A stretch of DNA of 32,000 nucleotides from an uncultured Actinomycetes bacterium (GTDB lineage: Bacteria > Actinomycetota > Actinomycetes > S36-B12 > CAIYMF01). Made by a program: the position numbers and the translations under genes. The notes under the pieces are model-generated. The model was not told where the DNA came from and did no database searches. It was given only the letters and a program-made list of their open reading frames with translations. Numbering within the stretch: the stretch's first letter is position 1; each line of letters begins with the position of its first letter. Shown one piece after another: positions 3,176 to 32,000 of the stretch. The stretch covers positions 2,190,001 to 2,222,000 of the forward strand of contig CAWJMG010000003.1 in the NCBI GenBank assembly GCA_963843975.1. Reading direction: 5' to 3'.

Positions 3176-3220
3176 GGGACCACCCAACCACGCGGGGTCC
3201 CGTGGGGAGGCGTGGAAACG

Positions 3221-3260
3221 CCGAGAGGGGCGCCCCGCTCGCGCGGGACGCCCCTCTCGG
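3221..3260 (-). repeat. Inverted repeat / stem-loop between the rpoC terminator and the DUF4190 gene start
   Basis: CCGAGAGGGGCG ... CGCCCCTCTCGG forms a 12-bp outer stem enclosing an inner CCCGC/GCGGG stem. Seen directly. Function unknown; it could be a second terminator or a 5'-UTR element. Confidence 0.5.
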
Positions 3261-3324
3261 GCCGTTCAGTGGCCGTGGATCAGCCCGTATCGCCTCGCTG
3301 CGCTCGGCGAACAGGGCTTGGCTC

Positions 3325-3367
3325 GGAGAGAGCACTCACGCCTCGTTCCTCGGCGTGCGCTCTCTCC
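3325..3367 (-). terminator. Stem-loop immediately downstream of rpoC (probable intrinsic terminator)
   Basis: Minus strand GGAGAGAGCGCACGCC-gaggaacga-GGCGTGAGTGCTCTCTCC: 9 + 6 bp with a small internal bulge, beginning 7 nt after the rpoC stop. Confidence 0.6.
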
Positions 3368-3373
3368 TCACCT

Positions 3374-7253
<3,880 letters not shown>

Positions 7254-7297
7254 TTATGTCCTCACTCGTGGTTCGGTCTCGTCTGGTGTCCGAGGGC

Positions 7298-7326
7298 GCG
7301 GCGGCCGGCTGATAGCCGGCCGCCGC
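7298..7326 (-). promoter_or_regulatory. Perfect 13-bp stem-loop in the rpoB-rpoC intercistronic spacer
   Basis: GCGGCGGCCGGCT-gat-AGCCGGCCGCCGC. It is palindromic, so it folds on either strand. It lies between the rpoB stop (7333) and the rpoC start (7250). Confidence 0.55.
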
Positions 7327-7332
7327 AGCGGC

Positions 7333-10803
<3,471 letters not shown>

Positions 10804-11297
10804 GAGGCATCCTTTCCGAGGCTTCGCGGACCTACGAGCGCGCACGCCGATCACGCCGTGTCCAGCGGACACGGCAGGGAAAGGACAGCGCAAAGCGGCA
10901 GCATACCCACGAGGGCGTGCTGCTGTCGAGTCCCGGTCGTCGGCCTCCGCGGGACATCGTCTCGTCCCGGAGCCCTGCCCTCCGCTCGACAGCGGGCGGT
11001 AGGCGGCTCGCACGGGGCGGACCTCGTCCCACGGGCGTTCCGCCCGGGGGTCTAGCGCGGTCCGATGGTGACCGCACTGAGGGTGGGGAGTCAAGCACCC
11101 CGCCCACATGTGGACGAGTTGGTGCCCTGTTCGTGACCCGAATCCCACCGATATCCGGACAAGAGACCGCCTCACAGCGCTCTGGCGTCCGGTTGGCCTC
11201 CGAGAGGCCGGCAGTGGTGCTCAGTTCCCAACCGCGGCAGCCGTCCGGGCATTCCGAGCCCGGCCGGCGCCGGCCCGCGGGCCCGCTGTGAGACAGC

Positions 11298-15397: not shown

Positions 15398-15515
15398 GCG
15401 GTCCTCGCTCGCGTCGTGGGCCGCTGGGCCCGAGATCCGGCCCGACCGGGTGGTCGGTCCGTGGTGCTGCCCGCCGTGAGGCGGGGTGGTGCGCCGGCCA
15501 GGAGGCCGGGTGGAG

Positions 15516-15588
15516 CAGGGCCGGAGGGACTTGAACCCCCAACCGCCGGTTTTGGAGACCGGTGCTCTACCAATTGAGCTACGACCCT
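15516..15588 (-). tRNA. trpT: tRNA-Trp (anticodon CCA)
   Basis: AGGGTCGTAGCTCAATTGGTAGAGCACCGGTCTCCAAAACCGGCGGTTGGGGGTTCAAGTCCCTCCGGCCCTG. Cloverleaf folded by hand: acceptor AGGGTCG/CGGCCCT with one G-U pair, anticodon loop CTCCAAA, GGTTCAAGT T-loop. No encoded 3' CCA. Confidence 0.95.
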
Positions 15589-21136: not shown

Positions 21137-21213
21137 TGGTAGCGGAGGCCGGACTTGAACCGGCGACACAGCGATTATGAGCCGCTTGCTCTGCCAGGCT
21201 GAGCTACTCCGCC
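21137..21213 (-). tRNA. metT: tRNA-Met (anticodon CAT), elongator type, 3' CCA encoded
   Basis: GGCGGAGTAGCTCAGCCTGGCAGAGCAAGCGGCTCATAATCGCTGTGTCGCCGGTTCAAGTCCGGCCTCCGCTACCA. The cloverleaf folds. The anticodon stem lacks the three G-C pairs of initiator tRNA, and positions 1-72 are paired (G-U). Confidence 0.93.
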
Positions 21214-21259
21214 GAGGTTCGGCCCCGCCCCCGGATGGGACGGGTCCGCTTGTTTTCCG

Positions 21260-21332
21260 AGCCCCCATACGGAATCGAACCGTAGACCTTCTCCTTACCA
21301 TGGAGACGCTCTGCCGACTGAGCTATGGGGGC
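21260..21332 (-). tRNA. thrT: tRNA-Thr (anticodon GGT)
   Basis: GCCCCCATAGCTCAGTCGGCAGAGCGTCTCCATGGTAAGGAGAAGGTCTACGGTTCGATTCCGTATGGGGGCT. Acceptor GCCCCCA/TGGGGGC, anticodon loop ATGGTAA. Confidence 0.95.
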
Positions 21333-22462: not shown

Positions 22463-22468
22463 GCCGTG

Positions 22469-22550
22469 TGGCGGGTGATGGATTCGAACCATCGAAGGCA
22501 AAGCCGACGGATTTACAGTCCGCTCCCATTGGCCGCTCGGGCAACCCGCC
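22469..22550 (-). tRNA. tyrT: tRNA-Tyr (anticodon GTA), long variable arm
   Basis: GGCGGGTTGCCCGAGCGGCCAATGGGAGCGGACTGTAAATCCGTCGGCTTTGCCTTCGATGGTTCGAATCCATCACCCGCCA. Acceptor GGCGGGT/ACCCGCC, anticodon loop CTGTAAA, GGTTCGAATCC T-arm. Confidence 0.95.
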
Positions 22551-22660: not shown

Positions 22661-23152
22661 ATGGCCGACAGCAGCTTCGACATCGTGAGCAAGGTCGACC
22701 GCCAGGAGGTCGACAACGCCCTGAACCAGGCGGCCAAGGAGCTCTCCCAGCGGTTCGACTTCAAGAACACGAGCACCACGATCGAGTGGAAGGGCGAGCT
22801 CGCGGTCGAGATCACGTCCTCCACCGAGGAGCGCGCCGCAGCCGCCCTCGATGTGTTCCGCGACAAGCTGGTGAAGCGCCAGCTCTCGCTCAAGTCGCTC
22901 ACGGCCGAGGACCCGCGCTCCTCCGGCAAGGAGTACAAGATCGCCATGACCTTCCAGGCCGGCATCAACCAGGAGCAGGCCAAGAAGCTCGGCAAGCTCA
23001 TCCGCGACGACGGCCCCAAGACCGTCAAGGCGCAGGTCATGGGCGAGGAGCTCCGCGTCACCTCCAAGAGCCGCGACGACCTGCAGGCCGTCCAGTCGCT
23101 CGTGCGCGACGCCGACCTGGACTTCGCCGTCCAGTTCGTGAACTACCGCTAG
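22661..23152 (+). CDS. yajQ: YajQ-family nucleotide (cyclic-di-GMP)-binding protein (UPF0234/DUF520)
   Basis: 163 aa from the ATG at 22661: [80 protein letters not shown]...[33 protein letters not shown]. The track ORF from 22445 would overlap tRNA-Tyr. Confidence 0.9.
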
Positions 23153-23289: not shown

Positions 23290-23299
23290 CCCCCCCCCC
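23290..23299. repeat. C10 (G10 on the minus strand) homopolymer tract in a convergent intergenic region
   Basis: aagCCCCCCCCCCgcc, counted directly. It lies between the yajQ and nuoI-like 3' ends. Confidence 0.9.
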
Positions 23300-23329: not shown

Positions 23330-23701
23330 TCAGGCGTCGCGCTTGTCTGCCTCGGGTGCGCTCGCTTCCCAGCCGGCCAGGCGGTCGCGCTCGTGGGTGA
23401 GCTCGGTGAGGGTCGTGCCGGCGTACTCGTGCTCGGGCGACCAGTGCAGCGCGTCGAACGGGCACACCTCGATGCAGATGCCGCAGTAGAGGCAGAGCGA
23501 GAAGTCGATCGCGAACCGGTCGAGCACGTTCTCGGTGCGCGGGCGGCGGTGCACCTCGTCCGCGGGGAGCGTCTCGGTGTGACCCTCGATGTGGATGCAC
23601 CAGTCGGGGCACTCACGGGCGCAGAGCATGCAGACCGTGCAGTTCTCCTCGACGAGGGAGATCACCCCGCGGCTGCGAGCAGGGACGACGTGGTCGCTCA
23701 T
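23330..23701 (-). CDS. NuoI-like 2x[4Fe-4S] ferredoxin-type subunit
   Basis: 123 aa from the ATG at 23701: [93 protein letters not shown]. It has two CxxCxxCxxxCP motifs with NuoI-type spacing. The start overlaps the nuoC-like stop (ATGA). Confidence 0.85.
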
Positions 23702-24240
23702 GCCTCGCTCCCCCAACCCTCGGGGACGCCGGGCGGCAGGGTGCGGCGACGCGCGCGGCCGGTGTCGCCGGCCGGGTCCTTCTCGCCGGGCCACGGCCGC
23801 GCGACGCGGGCGGCCAGCACGAAGTCCTTGCGCAGGGGGAAGGCGCCGAGCGACGGCTGGGTGCGCAGCGAAGAGAGGTCGGGGTGCCCGACGAACACGA
23901 CGCCGAACATCTCGTGCACCGACCGCTCGTGCCAGGCCCAGCCGCGGTGGACGCCGACGGCGCTCGCGACCTCGAGCCGGTCGGCCGGCACCCGGGTGCG
24001 CAGCAGCACGTGGTCGGCCGCGTCGGGCGTCGCGACGTGCGCGACCACCGCGATCCCGAGGTCGAGCTCGTCGTAGGCGGTGAGGTAGTCGGCGTACGTC
24101 GCCGCCGCAGCGGCGGCCGCGGCGAGCGCCGGCACCCACGCCGACGGCGAGACGTCGACCGTCACCGGGCCGAATCCCGCCGTCACGGCCAGCACCTGCT
24201 CGCCGAGCGCGGCGCGGACCGCCTCGACCAGCGCGCTCAT
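23698..24240 (-). CDS. NuoC-like (complex I 30-kDa subunit family) protein
   Basis: 180 aa: [39 protein letters not shown]...[40 protein letters not shown]. This is the NuoC signature (ERE..DMFGI.F.GHPDL...FPLRKD). The start overlaps the nuoB-like stop. Confidence 0.85.
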
Positions 24241-24728
24241 CGGGCCACCCCCGGGAGGCGGCGCAGGCCGTCGGCGAGCGCCTCGGGGCGCGGCGGGCAG
24301 CCGGGCACGTAGACGTCGACGGGCACGACCTGGTCGACGCCCTTGGTCACGGAGTACGAGTCCCAGTAGGGCCCGCCCGAGCTGGCGCAGGCGCCGAACG
24401 ACACCACGGGCGTGCCCGGAGGAAGCGACGCGTGCAGCTCGCGCAGGGCCGGGGCGAGGACGTCGGTGCAGGTGCCGGAGACCACCAGGACGTCGACGGC
24501 GTCAGCCTCGGGATCGGCGTCCGCGATCAGTCCGGCCGCACGGGCCTCGGGGCGGCGCAGCGCCGCAGCCACGAGCTCGACGGAGCAGCAGGCGAGGCCC
24601 GCGCCCGCGACGTGCAGGGCGACGACCCGGTCGTCGGCGCCGTCGAGGTCGACGGTCAACCGCAGCGGCGCTCCGGGGCCGGGCCGGCCGAGACCGGGGA
24701 GGCCGAGAAGGACATCGCCGTCCGCCAC
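24237..24728 (-). CDS. NuoB-like (complex I 20-kDa / hydrogenase small-subunit family) protein
   Basis: 163 aa, GTG at 24728 with an AGGGAGG RBS: ...[23 protein letters not shown]...[72 protein letters not shown]. All four N2-cluster cysteines (CC, C, C) are present. Confidence 0.88.
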
Positions 24729-24773: not shown

Positions 24774-24779
24774 CCTAGG
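24774..24779. repeat. Left copy of the 6-bp target-site duplication (CCTAGG)
   Basis: CCTAGG immediately abuts the left IS end. An identical hexamer abuts the right end at 25861..25866. Confidence 0.9.
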
Positions 24780-25860
24780 TGTACTCGGCCAGGACGTTGG
24801 TGACAGTCCGCGTGGCGGCTTGAACGAAGTGAAGACCCCCGATGCGGTGGGTGGTGTCTAAGCAACCGCCCGCACGGAGGTCTTCATGGCCCACGCTAAT
24901 GCCCGTCTGACGTTCCACGGCCGCTGCCTGCTGGTCCAGCGGGTCCGGTTCGACCGACGCCCGGTCTCCCACGTCGCGAAAGAGCTCGGCGTCTCCCGGC
25001 AGTGCGCGCACCGCTGGGTGGCCCGGTTCGACGCCGAGGGCTGGGCCGGCCTGCACGACCGGTCGAGCCGACCAGCGTCGATGCCTCGCCGGACCGCCGA
25101 GCGGGTCGAGGCCGCCGTTGTGCTGGCCCGTCAGGAGCTGCGGGCCGGGCCGGGGTTCATCGCGGCCGCGACCGGGGTCTCGGAACGGACCGTGACCCGG
25201 ATCCTGCGCCGGGCGGGGATGCCCCGGCTGGCCGAGTGCGACCCACTGACCGGGCAGGTGATCCGGGCCTCGCGGCAGACGTTCCAACGCTATGAGCGCG
25301 ACCACCCGGGCGCGCTGATCCACGTGGACGTCAAGAAGCTCGGCCGCATCCCCGACGGCGGCGGCTGGCGCGCCAACGGCCGCGGCCCACGGCCGGGCAG
25401 CAAGCGCGGCCCCGGGTTCGACTACGTCCACTCCGCGGTCGACGACCACTCCCGGCTGGCCTATTCCGAGATCCACCCGGACTCCCAGGGCGCCACCTGC
25501 GCCGGGTTCCTGACCCGGGCTGTGGAGTTCTTCGCCGGCCACGGCGTCACCGTCGAGCAGGTGATCACCGACAACGCCAAGGAGTATCTGCTCTCGCACG
25601 CGTTCCGGGACGCCGCCGCCACCCACGGCATCACCCAGCTATTCATCCGGCCGCACTGCCCATGGCAGAACGGCAAGGTCGAACGGTTCAACCGCACGCT
25701 GCAGGTCGAGTGGGCCTACCGGCAGGTCTTCCTCAACAACGACCAGCGCTCAGACGCTCTGGCACCCTGGCTCGAGCACTACAACCACCGACGCCCCCAC
25801 ACCGCCCTCGGAGGCAAGCCGCCGATCAGCCGGGTGTCACCAACGTGACGGCCGAGTACA
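24780..25860 (+). mobile_element. Intact IS481-family insertion sequence (1081 bp)
   Basis: Terminal inverted repeats TGTACTCGGCCaggACGTTGGTGACA (24780..24805) and the complement of TGTCACCAACGTgacGGCCGAGTACA (25835..25860) match at 23 of 26 positions. It carries a single rve-type transposase ORF and is flanked by a direct CCTAGG duplication. An NCTAGN target with 6-bp duplication is the known IS481 behaviour. Confidence 0.92.
24886..25848 (+). CDS. IS481-family DDE transposase (HTH + rve integrase core)
   Basis: 320 aa, ATG at 24886 with a GGAGG RBS: MAHANARLTFHGRCLLVQRVRFDRRPVSHVAKELGVSRQCAHRWVARFDAEGWAGLHDRSSRP...HPGALIHVDVKKLGRIPDGGGWR...GFDYVHSAVDDHSRLAYSE...RPHCPWQNGKVERFNRTLQVEWAY...YNHRRPHTALGGKPPISR. 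The stop codon lies inside the right IR. Confidence 0.93.
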   Translation: MAHANARLTFHGRCLLVQRVRFDRRPVSHVAKELGVSRQCAHRWVARFDAEGWAGLHDRSSRPASMPRRTAERVEAAVVLARQELRAGPGFIAAATGVSERTVTRILRRAGMPRLAECDPLTGQVIRASRQTFQRYERDHPGALIHVDVKKLGRIPDGGGWRANGRGPRPGSKRGPGFDYVHSAVDDHSRLAYSEIHPDSQGATCAGFLTRAVEFFAGHGVTVEQVITDNAKEYLLSHAFRDAAATHGITQLFIRPHCPWQNGKVERFNRTLQVEWAYRQVFLNNDQRSDALAPWLEHYNHRRPHTALGGKPPISRVSPT

Positions 25861-25866
25861 CCTAGG
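25861..25866. repeat. Right copy of the 6-bp target-site duplication (CCTAGG)
   Basis: See the left copy. Confidence 0.9.
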
Positions 25867-26055: not shown

Positions 26056-27904
<1,849 letters not shown>

Positions 27905-27912
<8 letters not shown>

Positions 27913-28963
27913 GTCCGTCGATCTGGGCTTCCCGTCGCTGAAGCTCGTCCCGAAGACGGACGAGAAGCAGTCGGCGAAGGACTTCAAGACCGACCAGGAG
28001 GTGCGCTGGTGCCCCGGGTGCGGCGACTACGCGATCCTGGCCGGCGTCCAGAGCTTCATGCCCGAGCTCGGCCTCGCCAAGGAGAACATCGTCTGGATCT
28101 CCGGCATCGGCTGCTCGAGCCGCTTCCCGTACTACATGAACACGTTCGGGATGCACTCGATCCACGGCCGTGCCCCGGCCATCGCCTCGGGCCTCGCGAT
28201 CACCCGCCCGGACCTCTCGGTCTGGGTCGTCACCGGTGACGGCGACGCGCTCTCCATCGGCGGCAACCACCTGATCCACGCGCTGCGCCGCAACGTGAAC
28301 CTCAAGATCCTGCTGTTCAACAACCGGATCTACGGCCTCACCAAGGGCCAGTACTCGCCCACGTCCGAGGTCGGCAAGGTCACGAAGTCGACGCCCATGG
28401 GCTCGCTGGACCACCCCTTCAACCCGGTCTCGCTCGCGCTCGGCGCCGAGGCGTCGTTCGTCGCGCGCACGATCGACTCCGACCGCAAGCACCTCACCGA
28501 GACGCTGCGCCAGGCGGCGCTTCACGACGGCACGGCGCTGGTCGAGATCTACCAGAACTGCAACATCTTCAACGACGGTGCGTGGGACCCGCTGAAGGAC
28601 TCCGACCACCGCGACCAGCTCACGCTGCGCCTCGAGCACGGCAAGCCGATCACGCTGGTCGACGGCACCCGCGGCGTGATCCGCAACGCCGACGGCGGTC
28701 TCGAGATCGCCGACGTCGCCGAGGTGGGGCTCGACGCGATCGTCGTGCACGACTCCCACCGTCCCGACCCGTCGACGGCGTTCGCGCTGTCGCGGCTCTC
28801 GGACTCGGTCACGCTCGCCAACACGCCGATCGGCGTGTTCCGCGACGTGCCGCGCCCGTCGTACGACTCCACGTTCCAGGCCCAGCTCGCCACGGCCAAG
28901 GCCGCGGGCAACGCCGACCTGGGTGCGCTGCTCGCCGGCAGCGACACGTGGGAGATCGCCTGA
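27905..28963 (+). CDS. korB: 2-oxoglutarate:ferredoxin (acceptor) oxidoreductase subunit beta (TPP-binding)
   Basis: 352 aa, GTG at 27905 overlapping the korA stop by 8 nt: ...DQEVRWCPGCGDYAILAGVQSFMPELGL...ISGIGCSSRFPYYMNTFGMHSIHGRAPAIASGL...VVTGDGDALSIGGNHLIHALRRNVNLKILLFNNRIYGLTKGQYSPTS. Confidence 0.93.
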
Positions 28964-29020: not shown

Positions 29021-29055
29021 GCACGTCCAGGCGGCTGACGGCCATGCGCAGCCTT

Positions 29056-29200
29056 GTCGGGGGTGTCGGCGTCATTCGGGCCGGGGTTTCTCCGCCCTCC
29101 CGGCCCGGATGATGCCGCCCCCGACCCAACGCGGGGGTGTCGGCGTCTTTCGGGCCGGGGTTTCTTTGCTCTCCCGGCCTGGAAGATGCCGACGCCCCCG
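29056..29200 (+). repeat. Two tandem copies (74-bp period) of a ~70-nt extended-hairpin element
   Basis: Copy 1 spans 29056..29125 and copy 2 spans 29132..29200. Both start CGGGGGTGTCGGCGTC.TTCGGGCCGGGGTTTCT and end CCCGGCC.GGA.GATGCCG(ACG)CCCCCG. Copy 2 folds into a continuous 28-bp helix with a 13-nt loop. Copy 1 is the same with a 3-nt bulge. Confidence 0.9.
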
Positions 29201-29293
29201 CCACCCCATCGTGAGGGGCGACCGCCGACGGCCGTCTCGGCTGGCGAATGGGGAGAGCGGCGGGAGAGCCGGACGGCGTACCGTGACGGAGCG

Positions 29294-30268
29294 ATGAGCG
29301 ACTCCCCCAGCACCCCGGCCGAGGCCGCGCGCGCCAGCCACCGGCTGGGCCTGCTGCTCGGCATCGGCGCGTACGCGCTCTGGGGGCTCTTCCCGCTCTA
29401 CTTCCCGCTGCTCAAGCCCGCGTCGCCGCTCGAGGTGCTCGCCGACCGGTTCGTGTGGTCGTTCGTCTTCCTCGCGCTGATCATGACGGTGACGCGGTCG
29501 TGGTCGCGCATGCGCGACGTGCTGCACAACCGCCGCGTGATGCTCATGCTGATCGCCGCAACGTTCCTGATCTCGGTCAACTGGGGCGTCTACATCTGGG
29601 CGGTCAACAACAACCACGTCGTCGAGGCCTCGCTCGGCTACTTCATCAACCCCCTCGTCGTGGTTCTCACCGGCACGCTCCTGCTCGGCGAGCGGCTGAG
29701 GCCGCTGCAGTGGACGGCCGTCGGGATCGCGGCGGTCGCCGTCGCGGTGCTCACCCTCGGGTACGGCTCCGTGCCCTGGGTCGCACTGGCACTGGCGTTC
29801 TCGTGGGCCGGCTACGGCCTGGTGAAGAAGCTCGCCGGCGTCGACCCGGTCGCGAGCCTCACCGTGGAGACGGCGTACGGCACGCCCTTCGCCCTCGCCT
29901 TCCTCGTGTGGCTCTCGACGCAGGGCACGCTGGTGTTCGGCCACTCGTCGACGGCCAACACGCTGCTGCTCATGATGACCGGCGTCGTGACGGCGATCCC
30001 GCTCGTGCTGTTCGGCGCCGCGACCAACCGTGTGCCGCTGTCGACGATCGGCGTGCTGCAGTACCTCACGCCGAGCCTGCAGTTCCTGCTCGGCATCTTC
30101 GTGTTCGGCGAGCAGATGCCGGCCTCGCGCTGGGTCGGCTTCGCGATCGTGTGGGTCGGGCTCATCGTCTTCACGTGGGACAGCCTGCGCAACGGCCAGG
30201 CCAACCGCGCCGGACGCCGGGCCGAGGAGTCCGACGGCGTGCACGAGGGCGTCACCGAGCCGGCCTGA
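29294..30268 (+). CDS. rarD: EamA/RarD-family (DMT superfamily) transporter
   Basis: 324 aa from the ATG at 29294: MSDSPSTPAEAARASHRLGLLLGIGAYALWGLFPLYFPLLKPASPLEVLADRFVWSFVFLALIM...VNWGVYIWAVNNNHVVEASLGYFINPLVVVLTGTLLLGERLRPLQW... About 10 TM helices with RarD-type motifs. The track ORF from 29054 is an extension through the repeat. Confidence 0.88.
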   Translation: MSDSPSTPAEAARASHRLGLLLGIGAYALWGLFPLYFPLLKPASPLEVLADRFVWSFVFLALIMTVTRSWSRMRDVLHNRRVMLMLIAATFLISVNWGVYIWAVNNNHVVEASLGYFINPLVVVLTGTLLLGERLRPLQWTAVGIAAVAVAVLTLGYGSVPWVALALAFSWAGYGLVKKLAGVDPVASLTVETAYGTPFALAFLVWLSTQGTLVFGHSSTANTLLLMMTGVVTAIPLVLFGAATNRVPLSTIGVLQYLTPSLQFLLGIFVFGEQMPASRWVGFAIVWVGLIVFTWDSLRNGQANRAGRRAEESDGVHEGVTEPA

Positions 30269-31016: not shown

Positions 31017-32000
31017 TCAGACGGAGCGGTCGACGACGACGTCGCACATCATCGAGAGCGCGTCGGTCACCGGGCCGGCGGGCAGCGGCGCCAGCTCGGC
31101 GCGGGCGGCCTCGGTCCAGCGGACGAGCTCGGCGCGGGCCTCGGCCATGGCGGGCGAGCTGCGCAGCAGGCCCAGCGCCTCAGCGTGCAGGTCGTCGTCG
31201 ACGAGCGGCTCGGCGAGCAGCCCGCGCAGGCGGGCGCCCTCGGGGTCGGTGCCGCGCAGGGCGAGCAGCACCGGAAGCGTGCGGATGCCCTCGCGCAGAT
31301 CGGTGCCGGGCGTCTTGCCCGACTCCTCCGACTCGCTCGCGATGTCGAGGAGGTCGTCCGAGAGCTGGAATGCGACGCCGAACTTCTCGCCGTACGCCGA
31401 GATCGCCTCGGCCACGCTATGCGGGGCGCCCGAGGTCATGGCACCCATGCGGCCGGCGGCGGCGATGAGCGAGCCGGTCTTGCCACCCAGCACGTCGAGG
31501 TGGTGGACGACGGGGTCCTCGCCCTCGGCCGGGCCGACGGTCTCGCGGATCTGGCCGGTGCAGAGACGCTCGAACGTGCGCGCCTGAAGCCGCACGATGT
31601 CGGTGCCGAGGTCGGCGGCGATGTCGGCCGCGCGGGCGAAGAGGAAGTCGCCGGTGAGGATCGCGACGGTGTTGTCCCAGCGCGCGTTGGCACTCGGGGC
31701 ACCGCGGCGCAGTGGCGCCTCGTCCATCACGTCATCGTGGTACAGAGTCGCGAGGTGCGTCAGCTCGGCCACGACGGCGCCGGGCACGTTGCCCGGGGCG
31801 TCGGCGTCGCCGTACTGCGACGCGACGAGGGCGAGCAGCGGACGGAAGCGCTTGCCGCCCGCGTTCACCAGGTGGCTCGACGCCACGGTGACGAACGGGT
31901 ACTCGCTCGTCACGGCCTTGCGCAGCGCGACCTCGACGTCGTCGAGACCGGTGCGCAGGCGGTCCGCGAGGGCGTCGTCGACGTGCGACAGCCCGAACGG
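31017..32000 (-). CDS. Polyprenyl diphosphate synthase (trans-isoprenyl, GrcC/HepT-like), 5'-partial (start lies beyond the window end)
   Basis: The frame is open to position 32000 (PFGLSHVDDALADRLRTGLDDVEVALRKAVTSEYPFVTVASSHLVNAGGKRFRPLL...). First DDxxD motif in LATLYHDDVMDEA and second in FQLSDDLLD. Stop at 31017. Confidence 0.9.
   Translation of the reverse strand, partial: PFGLSHVDDALADRLRTGLDDVEVALRKAVTSEYPFVTVASSHLVNAGGKRFRPLLALVASQYGDADAPGNVPGAVVAELTHLATLYHDDVMDEAPLRRGAPSANARWDNTVAILTGDFLFARAADIAADLGTDIVRLQARTFERLCTGQIRETVGPAEGEDPVVHHLDVLGGKTGSLIAAAGRMGAMTSGAPHSVAEAISAYGEKFGVAFQLSDDLLDIASESEESGKTPGTDLREGIRTLPVLLALRGTDPEGARLRGLLAEPLVDDDLHAEALGLLRSSPAMAEARAELVRWTEAARAELAPLPAGPVTDALSMMCDVVVDRSV

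Follow-up and report, generated by a model that had tools for sequence, protein, structure and literature searches.

To our knowledge, the textbook view treats NuoB, NuoC and NuoI as obligate parts of a membrane machine, respiratory complex I, that is built around NuoD. Among the described relatives of this machine, the nuo2 operon of Streptomyces (SCO4599-4608) has been called unclear in function, and hybrids with the canonical enzyme have been considered possible (PMC9239103). The Streptomyces operon lacks the NADH-input (N) module (PMC3765725), and a partial nuoABCHIJKLMN operon occurs in terrestrial and marine strains alike (PMC8622039). Here we analyse an operon of only three genes, encoding NuoB-, NuoC- and NuoI-like proteins (hereafter the trio), in a 32,000-nt stretch of DNA from an uncultured Actinomycetes bacterium (contig CAWJMG010000003.1; the whole stretch is referred to as the window). 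Comparison with related loci indicates that the trio derives from nuo2 by reduction and that it has been maintained by selection. As far as the searched literature shows, two aspects of this case appear to be new, namely the lineage-wide loss of seven membrane genes with B, C and I kept and remodelled, and a second, convergent reduction to the same three genes.

The gene trio and its protein families

The trio lies on the minus strand of the window. The NuoB-like gene (nuoB2-like; 24728..24237) encodes 163 amino acids (aa) from a GTG start with GAGGGAGG ahead of it, the NuoC-like gene (nuoC2-like; 24240..23698) encodes 180 aa, and the NuoI-like gene (nuoI2-like; 23701..23330) encodes a ferredoxin-type subunit of 123 aa for two [4Fe-4S] clusters. 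Overlaps of 4 nt with the sequence ATGA join B to C at 24237-24240 and C to I at 23698-23701, the three genes being translationally coupled. This tight coupling had been described in an earlier reading of the window made from its letters alone (the sequence-only reading), as had the four N2-cluster cysteines of the NuoB-like protein, the NuoC-like motif that includes FPLRKDF and the two CxxCxxCxxxCP motifs of the NuoI-like protein, all of which are indeed present. That is, the cluster-ligand cysteines of the window trio are complete, with four in the NuoB-like and eight in the NuoI-like protein, and one [4Fe-4S] cluster of the N2 type is predicted for the former.

The family assignments proposed at that stage are borne out by profile searches. 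The NuoB-like protein matches Pfam Oxidored_q6 (E = 1.2e-20) and passes the NCBIfam NuoB model PRK06411 (123.6 bits, cutoff 116), the NuoC-like protein matches Complex1_30kDa (E = 6e-21), and the NuoI-like protein matches several Fer4 and 4Fe-4S dicluster models of Pfam, with a score under the cutoff for the NCBIfam NuoI model TIGR01971 (70 bits, cutoff 113). The best matches of the three proteins in the PDB are complex I chains, at 107, 48 and 52 bits, respectively. In the case of the NuoB-like protein, the 107 bits were obtained against NuoB/NDUFS7 chains, compared with 67 bits against MbhJ, MBS subunit B and HycG; the NuoC-like protein matches complex I 30-kDa subunits, and the NuoI-like protein matches TYKY/NuoI. 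By these scores, the trio proteins are of the complex I type and not of the hydrogenase type. The NuoI-like protein also scores 40.4 bits with the PorD/KorD delta-subunit model TIGR02179, below its cutoff of 60.05, a match that we ascribe to the generic dicluster domain. Since the NuoC-like protein aligns with mycobacterial (M. smegmatis) NuoC at 31 bits only, it is an old paralog and not a recent duplicate. The trio is thus not a set of near-identical recent copies of the housekeeping nuoB, nuoC and nuoI, an outcome that the sequence-only reading had named as one that would refute it.

Alignment of the NuoC2 proteins revealed a family-specific C-terminal tail, W150-P-G...RR..PPGVP..W176, that is invariant in the trio and in the operon-type homologs described below. 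In the AlphaFold2 model of the NuoC2 monomer, the 30-kDa core is predicted with a local confidence score (pLDDT) above 90, and the tail with one below 50. A Foldseek search with this model returned complex I chain C as the top match (template modelling score ~0.6), consistent with a NuoC fold. A segment that is invariant yet disordered in the model is typical of a partner-binding peptide. The model of the NuoB2 monomer keeps the alpha/beta core (mean pLDDT 72).

No other Nuo homolog could be detected in the 32-kb window by tblastn with E. coli NuoA-N and the Streptosporangium nuo2 proteins (E <= 1e-5). In particular, the NuoD part of E. coli NuoCD, searched at the same threshold, is matched neither in the window nor at any of ~90 related loci of 20 kb each, and no homolog of a hydrogenase-type large subunit (NuoD/HycE-like) is found in the window or the related loci. 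NuoA, H, J, K, L, M and N likewise gave no tblastn match in the window, and they are present in operon-type relatives, whereas NuoE, F and G gave none either in the window or at any related locus. The locus is therefore devoid of nuoD, membrane and NADH-module genes, just as the sequence-only reading had stated, and its judgement that no characterised system has this composition also proved correct.

Descent from the ten-gene nuo2 operon

Homologs of the NuoC-like protein number more than 1,100 in public data and are nearly all actinobacterial; a profile search with NuoC2 retrieved 227 clusters at 50% identity (E <= 1e-30). We sampled 80 loci around such homologs from species-representative genomes, placed Nuo, KorAB and YajQ by tblastn, and included 89 loci in the count of architectures. 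A nuoA-B-C-H-I-J-K-L-M-N operon, divergent from korA->korB, was found in 80 of the 89 loci, with a convergent yajQ after it in several of them. It occurs in Streptomyces, Embleya, Streptosporangiales, Micromonospora, Jiangellaceae and metagenome-assembled genomes of Propionibacteriales. Of 86 loci, 74 have a divergent korA upstream, at a distance of up to 500 bp in 12 of them and of 1.5-5 kb in 58. NuoD, NuoE, NuoF and NuoG have no tblastn match within +/-10 kb at any of the ~90 related loci.

Only three of the ten nuo2 genes are found in the window, in the order yajQ, I, C, B, [insertion sequence (IS)], korA, korB. The comparison indicates that the trio is a reduced derivative of nuo2 that occupies the same korAB/yajQ slot without the seven membrane genes of the parent operon. 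It is therefore not the 'orphan' operon for which it had been taken, given that its longer counterpart nuoABCHIJKLMN has been described (PMC8622039, PMC9239103). Because the ten-gene parent operon is itself without NuoD, the absence of this subunit characterises the whole family and is not special to the window locus.

Several variations were seen among the nuo2 homologs. Many NuoC2 proteins of the Streptomyces type (P0167, P0286 and others) have 250-450 aa of low-complexity sequence rich in Pro, Ala, Glu and Ser after the conserved tail, in which 'SASEGSAS' repeats recur. The long NuoC2 homologs (438-626 aa) were considered as NuoC-NuoD fusions, and this was rejected, as they contain only the 30-kDa domain and low-complexity tails. 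In some Streptosporangiaceae an extra conserved open reading frame (ORF) of 312 aa lies between nuoH2 and nuoI2 (L001:11705-12643, and also in L016, L020, L021, L027, L033 and L054). It was rejected as a cryptic NuoD, since it matches no Pfam model and shows no resemblance to E. coli NuoD by tblastn; it might be an accessory subunit of the nuo2 complex that is peculiar to this lineage. In Streptosporangium sp. NBC_01756, nuo2 is split between nuoH2/u312 and nuoI2 (L001:12703-15486) by genes for a DDE transposase and, in opposite orientation, a Ser/Thr kinase. Two Micromonospora loci (L039 and L059) have a rearranged nuo2 layout, with ~3-5 kb between nuoB2 and nuoC2 and ~2-4 kb between nuoH2 and nuoI2, and no nuoA2 or korA match upstream.

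Recurrence of the trio-only state

The B-C-I trio recurs as a unit, whereas the sequence-only reading had named an arrangement conserved in no other genome as a refuting outcome, and the trio-only state was found at 12 further loci (among them L003, L004, L035, L086, L087, L089, L090, L091, L092, L093 and P0081). The carriers have small genomes of 2.4-3.4 Mb, and one of them (L093) is a cultured species of the Sporichthyaceae, Longivirga aurantiaca (GCA_042660085.1), with 90% identity in the NuoB-like protein. The refuting possibility raised earlier, that IS-free relatives show the trio embedded in a longer nuo operon, holds for the distant ones, which carry the ten-gene nuo2, whereas the close IS-free relatives have the trio only.

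In a neighbour-joining tree of concatenated B, C and I, all 200 bootstraps recover the nine main-clade trio loci as monophyletic, and 175 of the 200 place an operon-type locus (L088; ENA ERZ25039574 contig_7383) as their sister. The trio clade nests inside the nuo2 family, far from E. coli. One trio locus, L035, groups with the main clade in only 2 of 200 bootstraps, so the reduction to exactly B-C-I has, on this tree, at least two independent origins. The NuoB of L035 retains NWGRRYSLW and PRRAD, that is, segments lost in the main clade (see below), which suggests that this reduction is the younger event. The sister locus L088 was also considered as a decay intermediate, since its nuoA2, J2, L2 and M2 are fragmented; however, the same holds for its korA and yajQ, which makes assembly frameshifts likelier, and the locus was not used as evidence of decay.

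A mirror image of the trio is the nuoAHJKLMN operon of marine actinomycetes, which has been reported as a 'marine adaptation' gene set (PMC8622039). As this operon keeps exactly the seven genes lost by the trio, the comparison points to two modules that can be separated, B-C-I and A-H-J-K-L-M-N.

Selection and loss of segments

All ORFs are intact in the 13 trio loci, and in the eight that are fully annotated the 4-nt overlaps are kept (ATGA or GTGA), while all four NuoB cysteines and all eight NuoI cysteines are invariant. Ratios of non-synonymous to synonymous substitution rates (dN/dS) were estimated by the Nei-Gojobori method. Among the four closest genomes (the window, L086, L087 and L093), they are 0.14-0.22 for B, 0.17-0.28 for C and 0.09-0.21 for I, alongside ~0.1 for the neighbouring KorA and KorB and 0.07-0.24 for YajQ. 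More distant pairs gave 0.3-0.7 at dS above ~0.6, values that are probably inflated by saturation, and the four closest genomes were therefore relied on. The corresponding medians for operon-type Streptosporangiaceae are 0.08 (B), 0.32 (C) and 0.29 (I); that is, B2 is less constrained in the trio than in the operon type (0.14-0.22 versus a median of 0.08). Taken together, the substitution pattern indicates that the trio is under purifying selection in this lineage.

The trio-type NuoB is represented by 111 distinct clusters at 90% identity in public data. The proteins of the main clade have lost several segments. NuoB is without the N-terminal LNWGRRYSLWxFNFG (NWGRxxSLW), the PRQAD loop and the C-terminal helix, all of which are present in operon-type NuoB2 and in E. 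coli NuoB, and NuoI is shorter than operon-type NuoI2 at both ends, by ~35 residues at the N-terminus (GLAKGLxVTLRxM...QYPE) and by the proline-rich C-terminal tail. Neither NWGRxxSLW nor PRQAD is found in 111 of the best 120 clusters of NuoB homologs (52-95% identity), and every cysteine motif is retained in 118 of the 120. Moreover, the NuoB2 loop GGPYWDSY is invariant. In complex I structures the lost NuoB and NuoI segments presumably form contacts to NuoH and NuoA and line the quinone cavity. Because they would thus face the membrane arm or the quinone site, their loss fits a detachment of the trio from any membrane arm.

The IS481 insertion

Between the trio and korA, the window carries an IS481-family element (24780..25860, plus strand), the limits of which were set by comparison with the IS-free intergenic regions of L086 and L087. 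It encodes a transposase of 320 aa (24886..25848, plus strand; Pfam rve, rve_3 and LZ_Tnp_IS481), and its ends are imperfect terminal inverted repeats starting TGTACTCGGCC. The element is flanked by a target duplication, CCTAGG, with the trio-proximal copy at 24774..24779, 46 nt upstream of the nuoB2 start codon, and the korA-proximal copy at 25861..25866, whereas L086 and L087 carry an unbroken GCTCGCCTAGGCTCTG at the insertion site. Since the CCTAGG duplication is perfect and no decay was seen, the insertion is recent. Furthermore, the IS is absent from all further trio loci.

The element separates the trio from most of the divergent intergenic region shared by korA and nuoB2 and may have altered trio expression in the source genome. 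A promoter and terminator scan around the trio and the IS yielded no usable signal and no promoter-like site; the same scan found none anywhere in the region, and none was expected.

Genomic neighbourhood

The downstream end of the conserved slot is yajQ (22661..23152, plus strand), which is convergent with the trio. On the other side of the IS, and divergent from the trio, korA (26056..27912, plus strand) encodes the alpha(/gamma) subunit of a 2-oxoglutarate:ferredoxin oxidoreductase (KOR), as indicated by the source names in its cluster and by POR and POR_N domains in its orthologs, and korB (27905..28963, plus strand) encodes the beta subunit, which carries thiamine pyrophosphate (TPP) and a [4Fe-4S] cluster (TPP_enzyme_C in orthologs). 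The sequence-only reading had described the trio as convergent with yajQ and, once the IS is discounted, divergent from korA; the IS-free relatives agree. The yajQ gene is in the same place in L087 and L089-L093, and follows nuoN2 in L023, L029, L038 and L076. The nuoI2 stop codon and yajQ are separated by a short convergent spacer that contains a run of ten G on the minus strand (23290-23299), just ahead of which an inverted repeat (GACGCCTGACGCGTCAGACGC) spans the nuoI2 stop codon.

Two further synteny markers follow korB, an ORF for an EamA-family transporter (29054..30268, plus strand; its true start is probably later) and a polyprenyl synthase gene (31017..32000, minus strand) that leaves the window at its end. 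The latter encodes 298 aa from the first in-window start, compared with 332 aa in relatives, and the last 100 nt of the window still belong to it. In relatives the order is canonical nuoL-M-N, polyprenyl synthase, EamA, korB, korA, with the polyprenyl synthase gene directly after canonical nuoN, and the canonical nuo operon lies ~5-6 kb past korB in every relative with enough flank. Only the distal genes of that operon are in view there (nuoL-M-N, or nuoH-N in P0081). As the window shares the EamA and polyprenyl-synthase markers, a canonical nuo operon almost certainly adjoins it, as judged by synteny, and would also carry nuoD. Given the position of this operon beyond korB in relatives and the same markers in the window, the housekeeping NuoD protein is probably available in the cell. 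In the abundant metagenomic lineage of P0081 (19 contigs), canonical nuoH-N, polyprenyl synthase and EamA are followed directly by B-C-I and yajQ.

Upstream of yajQ, four tRNA genes, all on the minus strand, were detected by an Rfam scan of the window, which returned nothing else: tRNA-Trp (15515-15588), tRNA-Met (21137-21213), tRNA-Thr (21259-21332) and tRNA-Tyr (22468-22550), the last of which lies close to yajQ on its upstream side. All four are overlapped by long, spurious ORFs of high GC content. Two long plus-strand ORFs, at 3212-6742 (1176 aa) and 7147-11055 (1302 aa), most likely represent rpoB and rpoC. If they do, the trio lies inside the conserved secE-nusG-L11-L1-L10-rpoBC core region, as in relatives.

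A possible soluble redox module tied to KorAB

The reading that we tentatively favour, and that in our estimate falls a little short of probable, is that B2, C2 and I2 form a functional soluble module of three [4Fe-4S] clusters that serves as a redox partner of KorAB. The comparisons given above establish what the trio is, where it comes from, its conservation under purifying selection and its loss of motifs; from them we infer the soluble complex, the cluster chain, the link to KorAB and the direction of electron flow. Deletion of A, H, J, K, L, M and N from nuo2 in a Sporichthyaceae-like lineage left B, C and I, which were kept and re-joined by 4-nt overlaps, and their products were trimmed of segments that presumably face the membrane arm or quinone site. 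The result would be a soluble or loosely attached three-protein complex, in which two [4Fe-4S] clusters in NuoI2 and one in NuoB2 would make up the chain, and NuoC2 would act as scaffold and docking subunit via its conserved, intrinsically disordered tail. Such a complex could take electrons from the cluster of KorB (or feed KorB) and hand them on to a further acceptor, with NuoI2 in the role of a delta subunit for the two-subunit KorAB.

KorAB is the most economical partner for several reasons. The korA gene is divergent and upstream of the trio, and KorAB is of the two-subunit type, without a ferredoxin-like delta subunit. Moreover, the physiological acceptor of the mycobacterial KOR is unknown, NAD+, NADP+, FMN, FAD and menadione not being reduced (PMC2773412), and KorA (SCO4594) and nuo2 (SCO4599-4608) share a strain-specific abundance pattern in Streptomyces proteomes, the levels of both in S. 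coelicolor greatly exceeding those in S. lividans (PMC8981147, PMC9739823). A more specific version, in which the B-C-I module, without NuoD or membrane arm, was exapted as the dedicated redox partner of the aerotolerant actinobacterial KOR, that is, as a three-cluster 'ferredoxin', is possible, though we regard it as doubtful.

A number of points weigh against a partnership with KorAB, which is proposed from context. The adjacency of korAB and the trio may be inherited, the whole region (canonical nuo, korAB, yajQ, L33, secE-nusG-L11...) being a conserved syntenic block. The trio locus of P0081 has no korAB in the slot, and the operon-type loci L012, L051, L059 and L067 have no korA within 6-10 kb. 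NuoI2 scores 40 bits with the PorD/KorD delta model, under the cutoff of 60. NuoC binds no cofactor, and its known role is the clasping of NuoD; its retention, together with the invariant NuoB2 loop, which we take to be the NuoD- and cluster-facing loop in complex I, may hint at a NuoD-type partner. In the source genome itself, the IS may have silenced the trio copy.

A NuoD-type partner could be the canonical one. B2, C2 and I2 would then be an alternative quinone (Q) module around canonical NuoD, possibly on the canonical membrane arm, forming a hybrid complex I isoform whose redox or regulatory behaviour would be altered. In the assembly of complex I, NuoD is joined in the Q module by precisely B, C and I, the cofactor-less C2 has been kept, and the B2 loop GGPYWDSY does not vary. 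Canonical nuo genes lie ~5-6 kb past korB in every relative with enough flank, the independent L035 trio still has NWGRRYSLW and PRRAD, and a nuo/nuo2 hybrid has been proposed for Streptomyces (PMC9239103). However, the losses from NuoB2 and NuoI2 in the main clade would make docking to the membrane arm unlikely, provided that the segments contact NuoH and NuoA and line the quinone cavity. The proteins are also very divergent from the canonical actinobacterial subunits (C2 having only 31 bits to M. smegmatis NuoC), and the constraint on B2 is looser than on operon-type B2 (0.14-0.22 versus a median of 0.08). We therefore consider such a hybrid unlikely. Alternatively, the trio might join an unlinked NuoD2-like protein in a soluble four-subunit module, which would have a substrate pocket of its own and be either a complete, membrane-free Q module or a unit of the hydrogenase-like kind. 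This arrangement would equally suit the kept C2 and the unvarying B2 loop, and Streptomyces genomes with a nuoD2 away from nuo2 have been reported (PMC8388888, PMC3765725); nevertheless, any joint action of Streptomyces NuoD2 with nuo2 is conjectural, and NuoD gave no match within +/-10 kb of the ~90 loci, so that we rate a fourth, unlinked subunit as rather improbable.

It could also be argued that the trio is a non-functional remnant of a decayed nuo2, severed in the source genome from its promoter by the IS. The membrane genes are lost, the branches in the trio clade are long, and the IS has come to lie between the trio and the shared intergenic region, at 46 nt from the start codon; the promoter scan points the same way, although it yielded no site anywhere in the region and was expected to yield none. 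Decay is difficult to reconcile with intact ORFs in all 13 trio loci and preserved start/stop overlaps, with dN/dS of 0.09-0.28 among close relatives, with the invariance of all 12 cysteine ligands and of the C2 tail, with 111 distinct 90%-identity clusters of trio-type NuoB, and with the arrival of two independent lineages at the same three genes. Silencing by the IS in one strain is possible, but the insertion is recent, its duplication being perfect and free of decay. A remnant is thus very improbable, and a soluble module tied to KorAB is still the reading that we tentatively prefer.

That a lineage keeps B-C-I alone under selection, and that this state was reached twice, argues that a complex I-like Fe-S part can stand alone. 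It also brings into sharper focus the role of the NuoD-less nuo2 operon that is widespread in Streptomyces and its relatives. The trio is a concrete candidate partner for the actinobacterial KOR, an enzyme with a bearing on the tricarboxylic acid cycle in Mycobacterium tuberculosis. In that species, CO2-dependent growth has been reported as a ΔkorAB phenotype. If the partnership were true, the missing physiological acceptor or donor of KorAB would be supplied, and the Fe-S subunits of complex I would be able to act as an autonomous soluble unit. Longivirga aurantiaca, as a cultured carrier, puts experiments within reach.

Comparison with known systems

The nuo2 operon is the closest relative of the trio. 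Its B, C and I (S. coelicolor SCO4599-SCO4608) are orthologous to those of the trio, with 47-53% identity for C and the same NuoC2 tail; it occupies the same slot beside korAB, with yajQ after it in several genomes, and both are without nuoD, E, F and G. Unlike the trio, nuo2 has the seven membrane genes as well as NWGRxxSLW, PRQAD, the C-terminal helix of NuoB2 and the extensions of NuoI2, all of which the window clade has lost. The marine nuoAHJKLMN operon, compared here by its description, is the opposite of the trio, consisting of membrane subunits only and no Fe-S subunits. With the Q module of canonical NuoA-N, the trio has in common the folds of NuoB, NuoC and NuoI and their cluster ligands, whereas the trio locus has no NuoD, quinone pocket, membrane arm or NADH module, and its sequences are far from the housekeeping actinobacterial subunits.

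A second NuoD-less cluster of the nuo type, also found beside a canonical one, is the uncharacterised 'nNDH' of Marinimicrobia, which lacks nuoDEF (PMC6143742). It is set apart from the trio, by its description, in belonging to another phylum and in having a subunit set that includes G and membrane subunits. The group 4 [NiFe]-hydrogenase relatives (Ech, Mbh, Mbx/Mbs, Hyc and Fpo) have a large subunit beside the small one, which is absent at the trio locus. The delta subunit PorD/KorD is a dicluster protein with two [4Fe-4S] clusters that relays electrons from the TPP/[4Fe-4S] beta subunit, and NuoI2 is proposed as its analog. NuoI2 is not a member of that family (40 bits versus 60), being of the NuoI type (70 bits to TIGR01971).

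For a KOR-type enzyme coupled to Nuo Fe-S subunits, the best precedent is complex I of Campylobacter jejuni, which is described as lacking the NADH-oxidising subunits NuoE and NuoF and as receiving its electrons from a low-potential carrier, flavodoxin (PMC4453560). The Campylobacter enzyme, a quinone reductase, still has NuoD and a complete membrane arm, both of which are missing from the trio. The Campylobacter flavodoxin is reportedly reduced by a 2-oxoacid:acceptor oxidoreductase.

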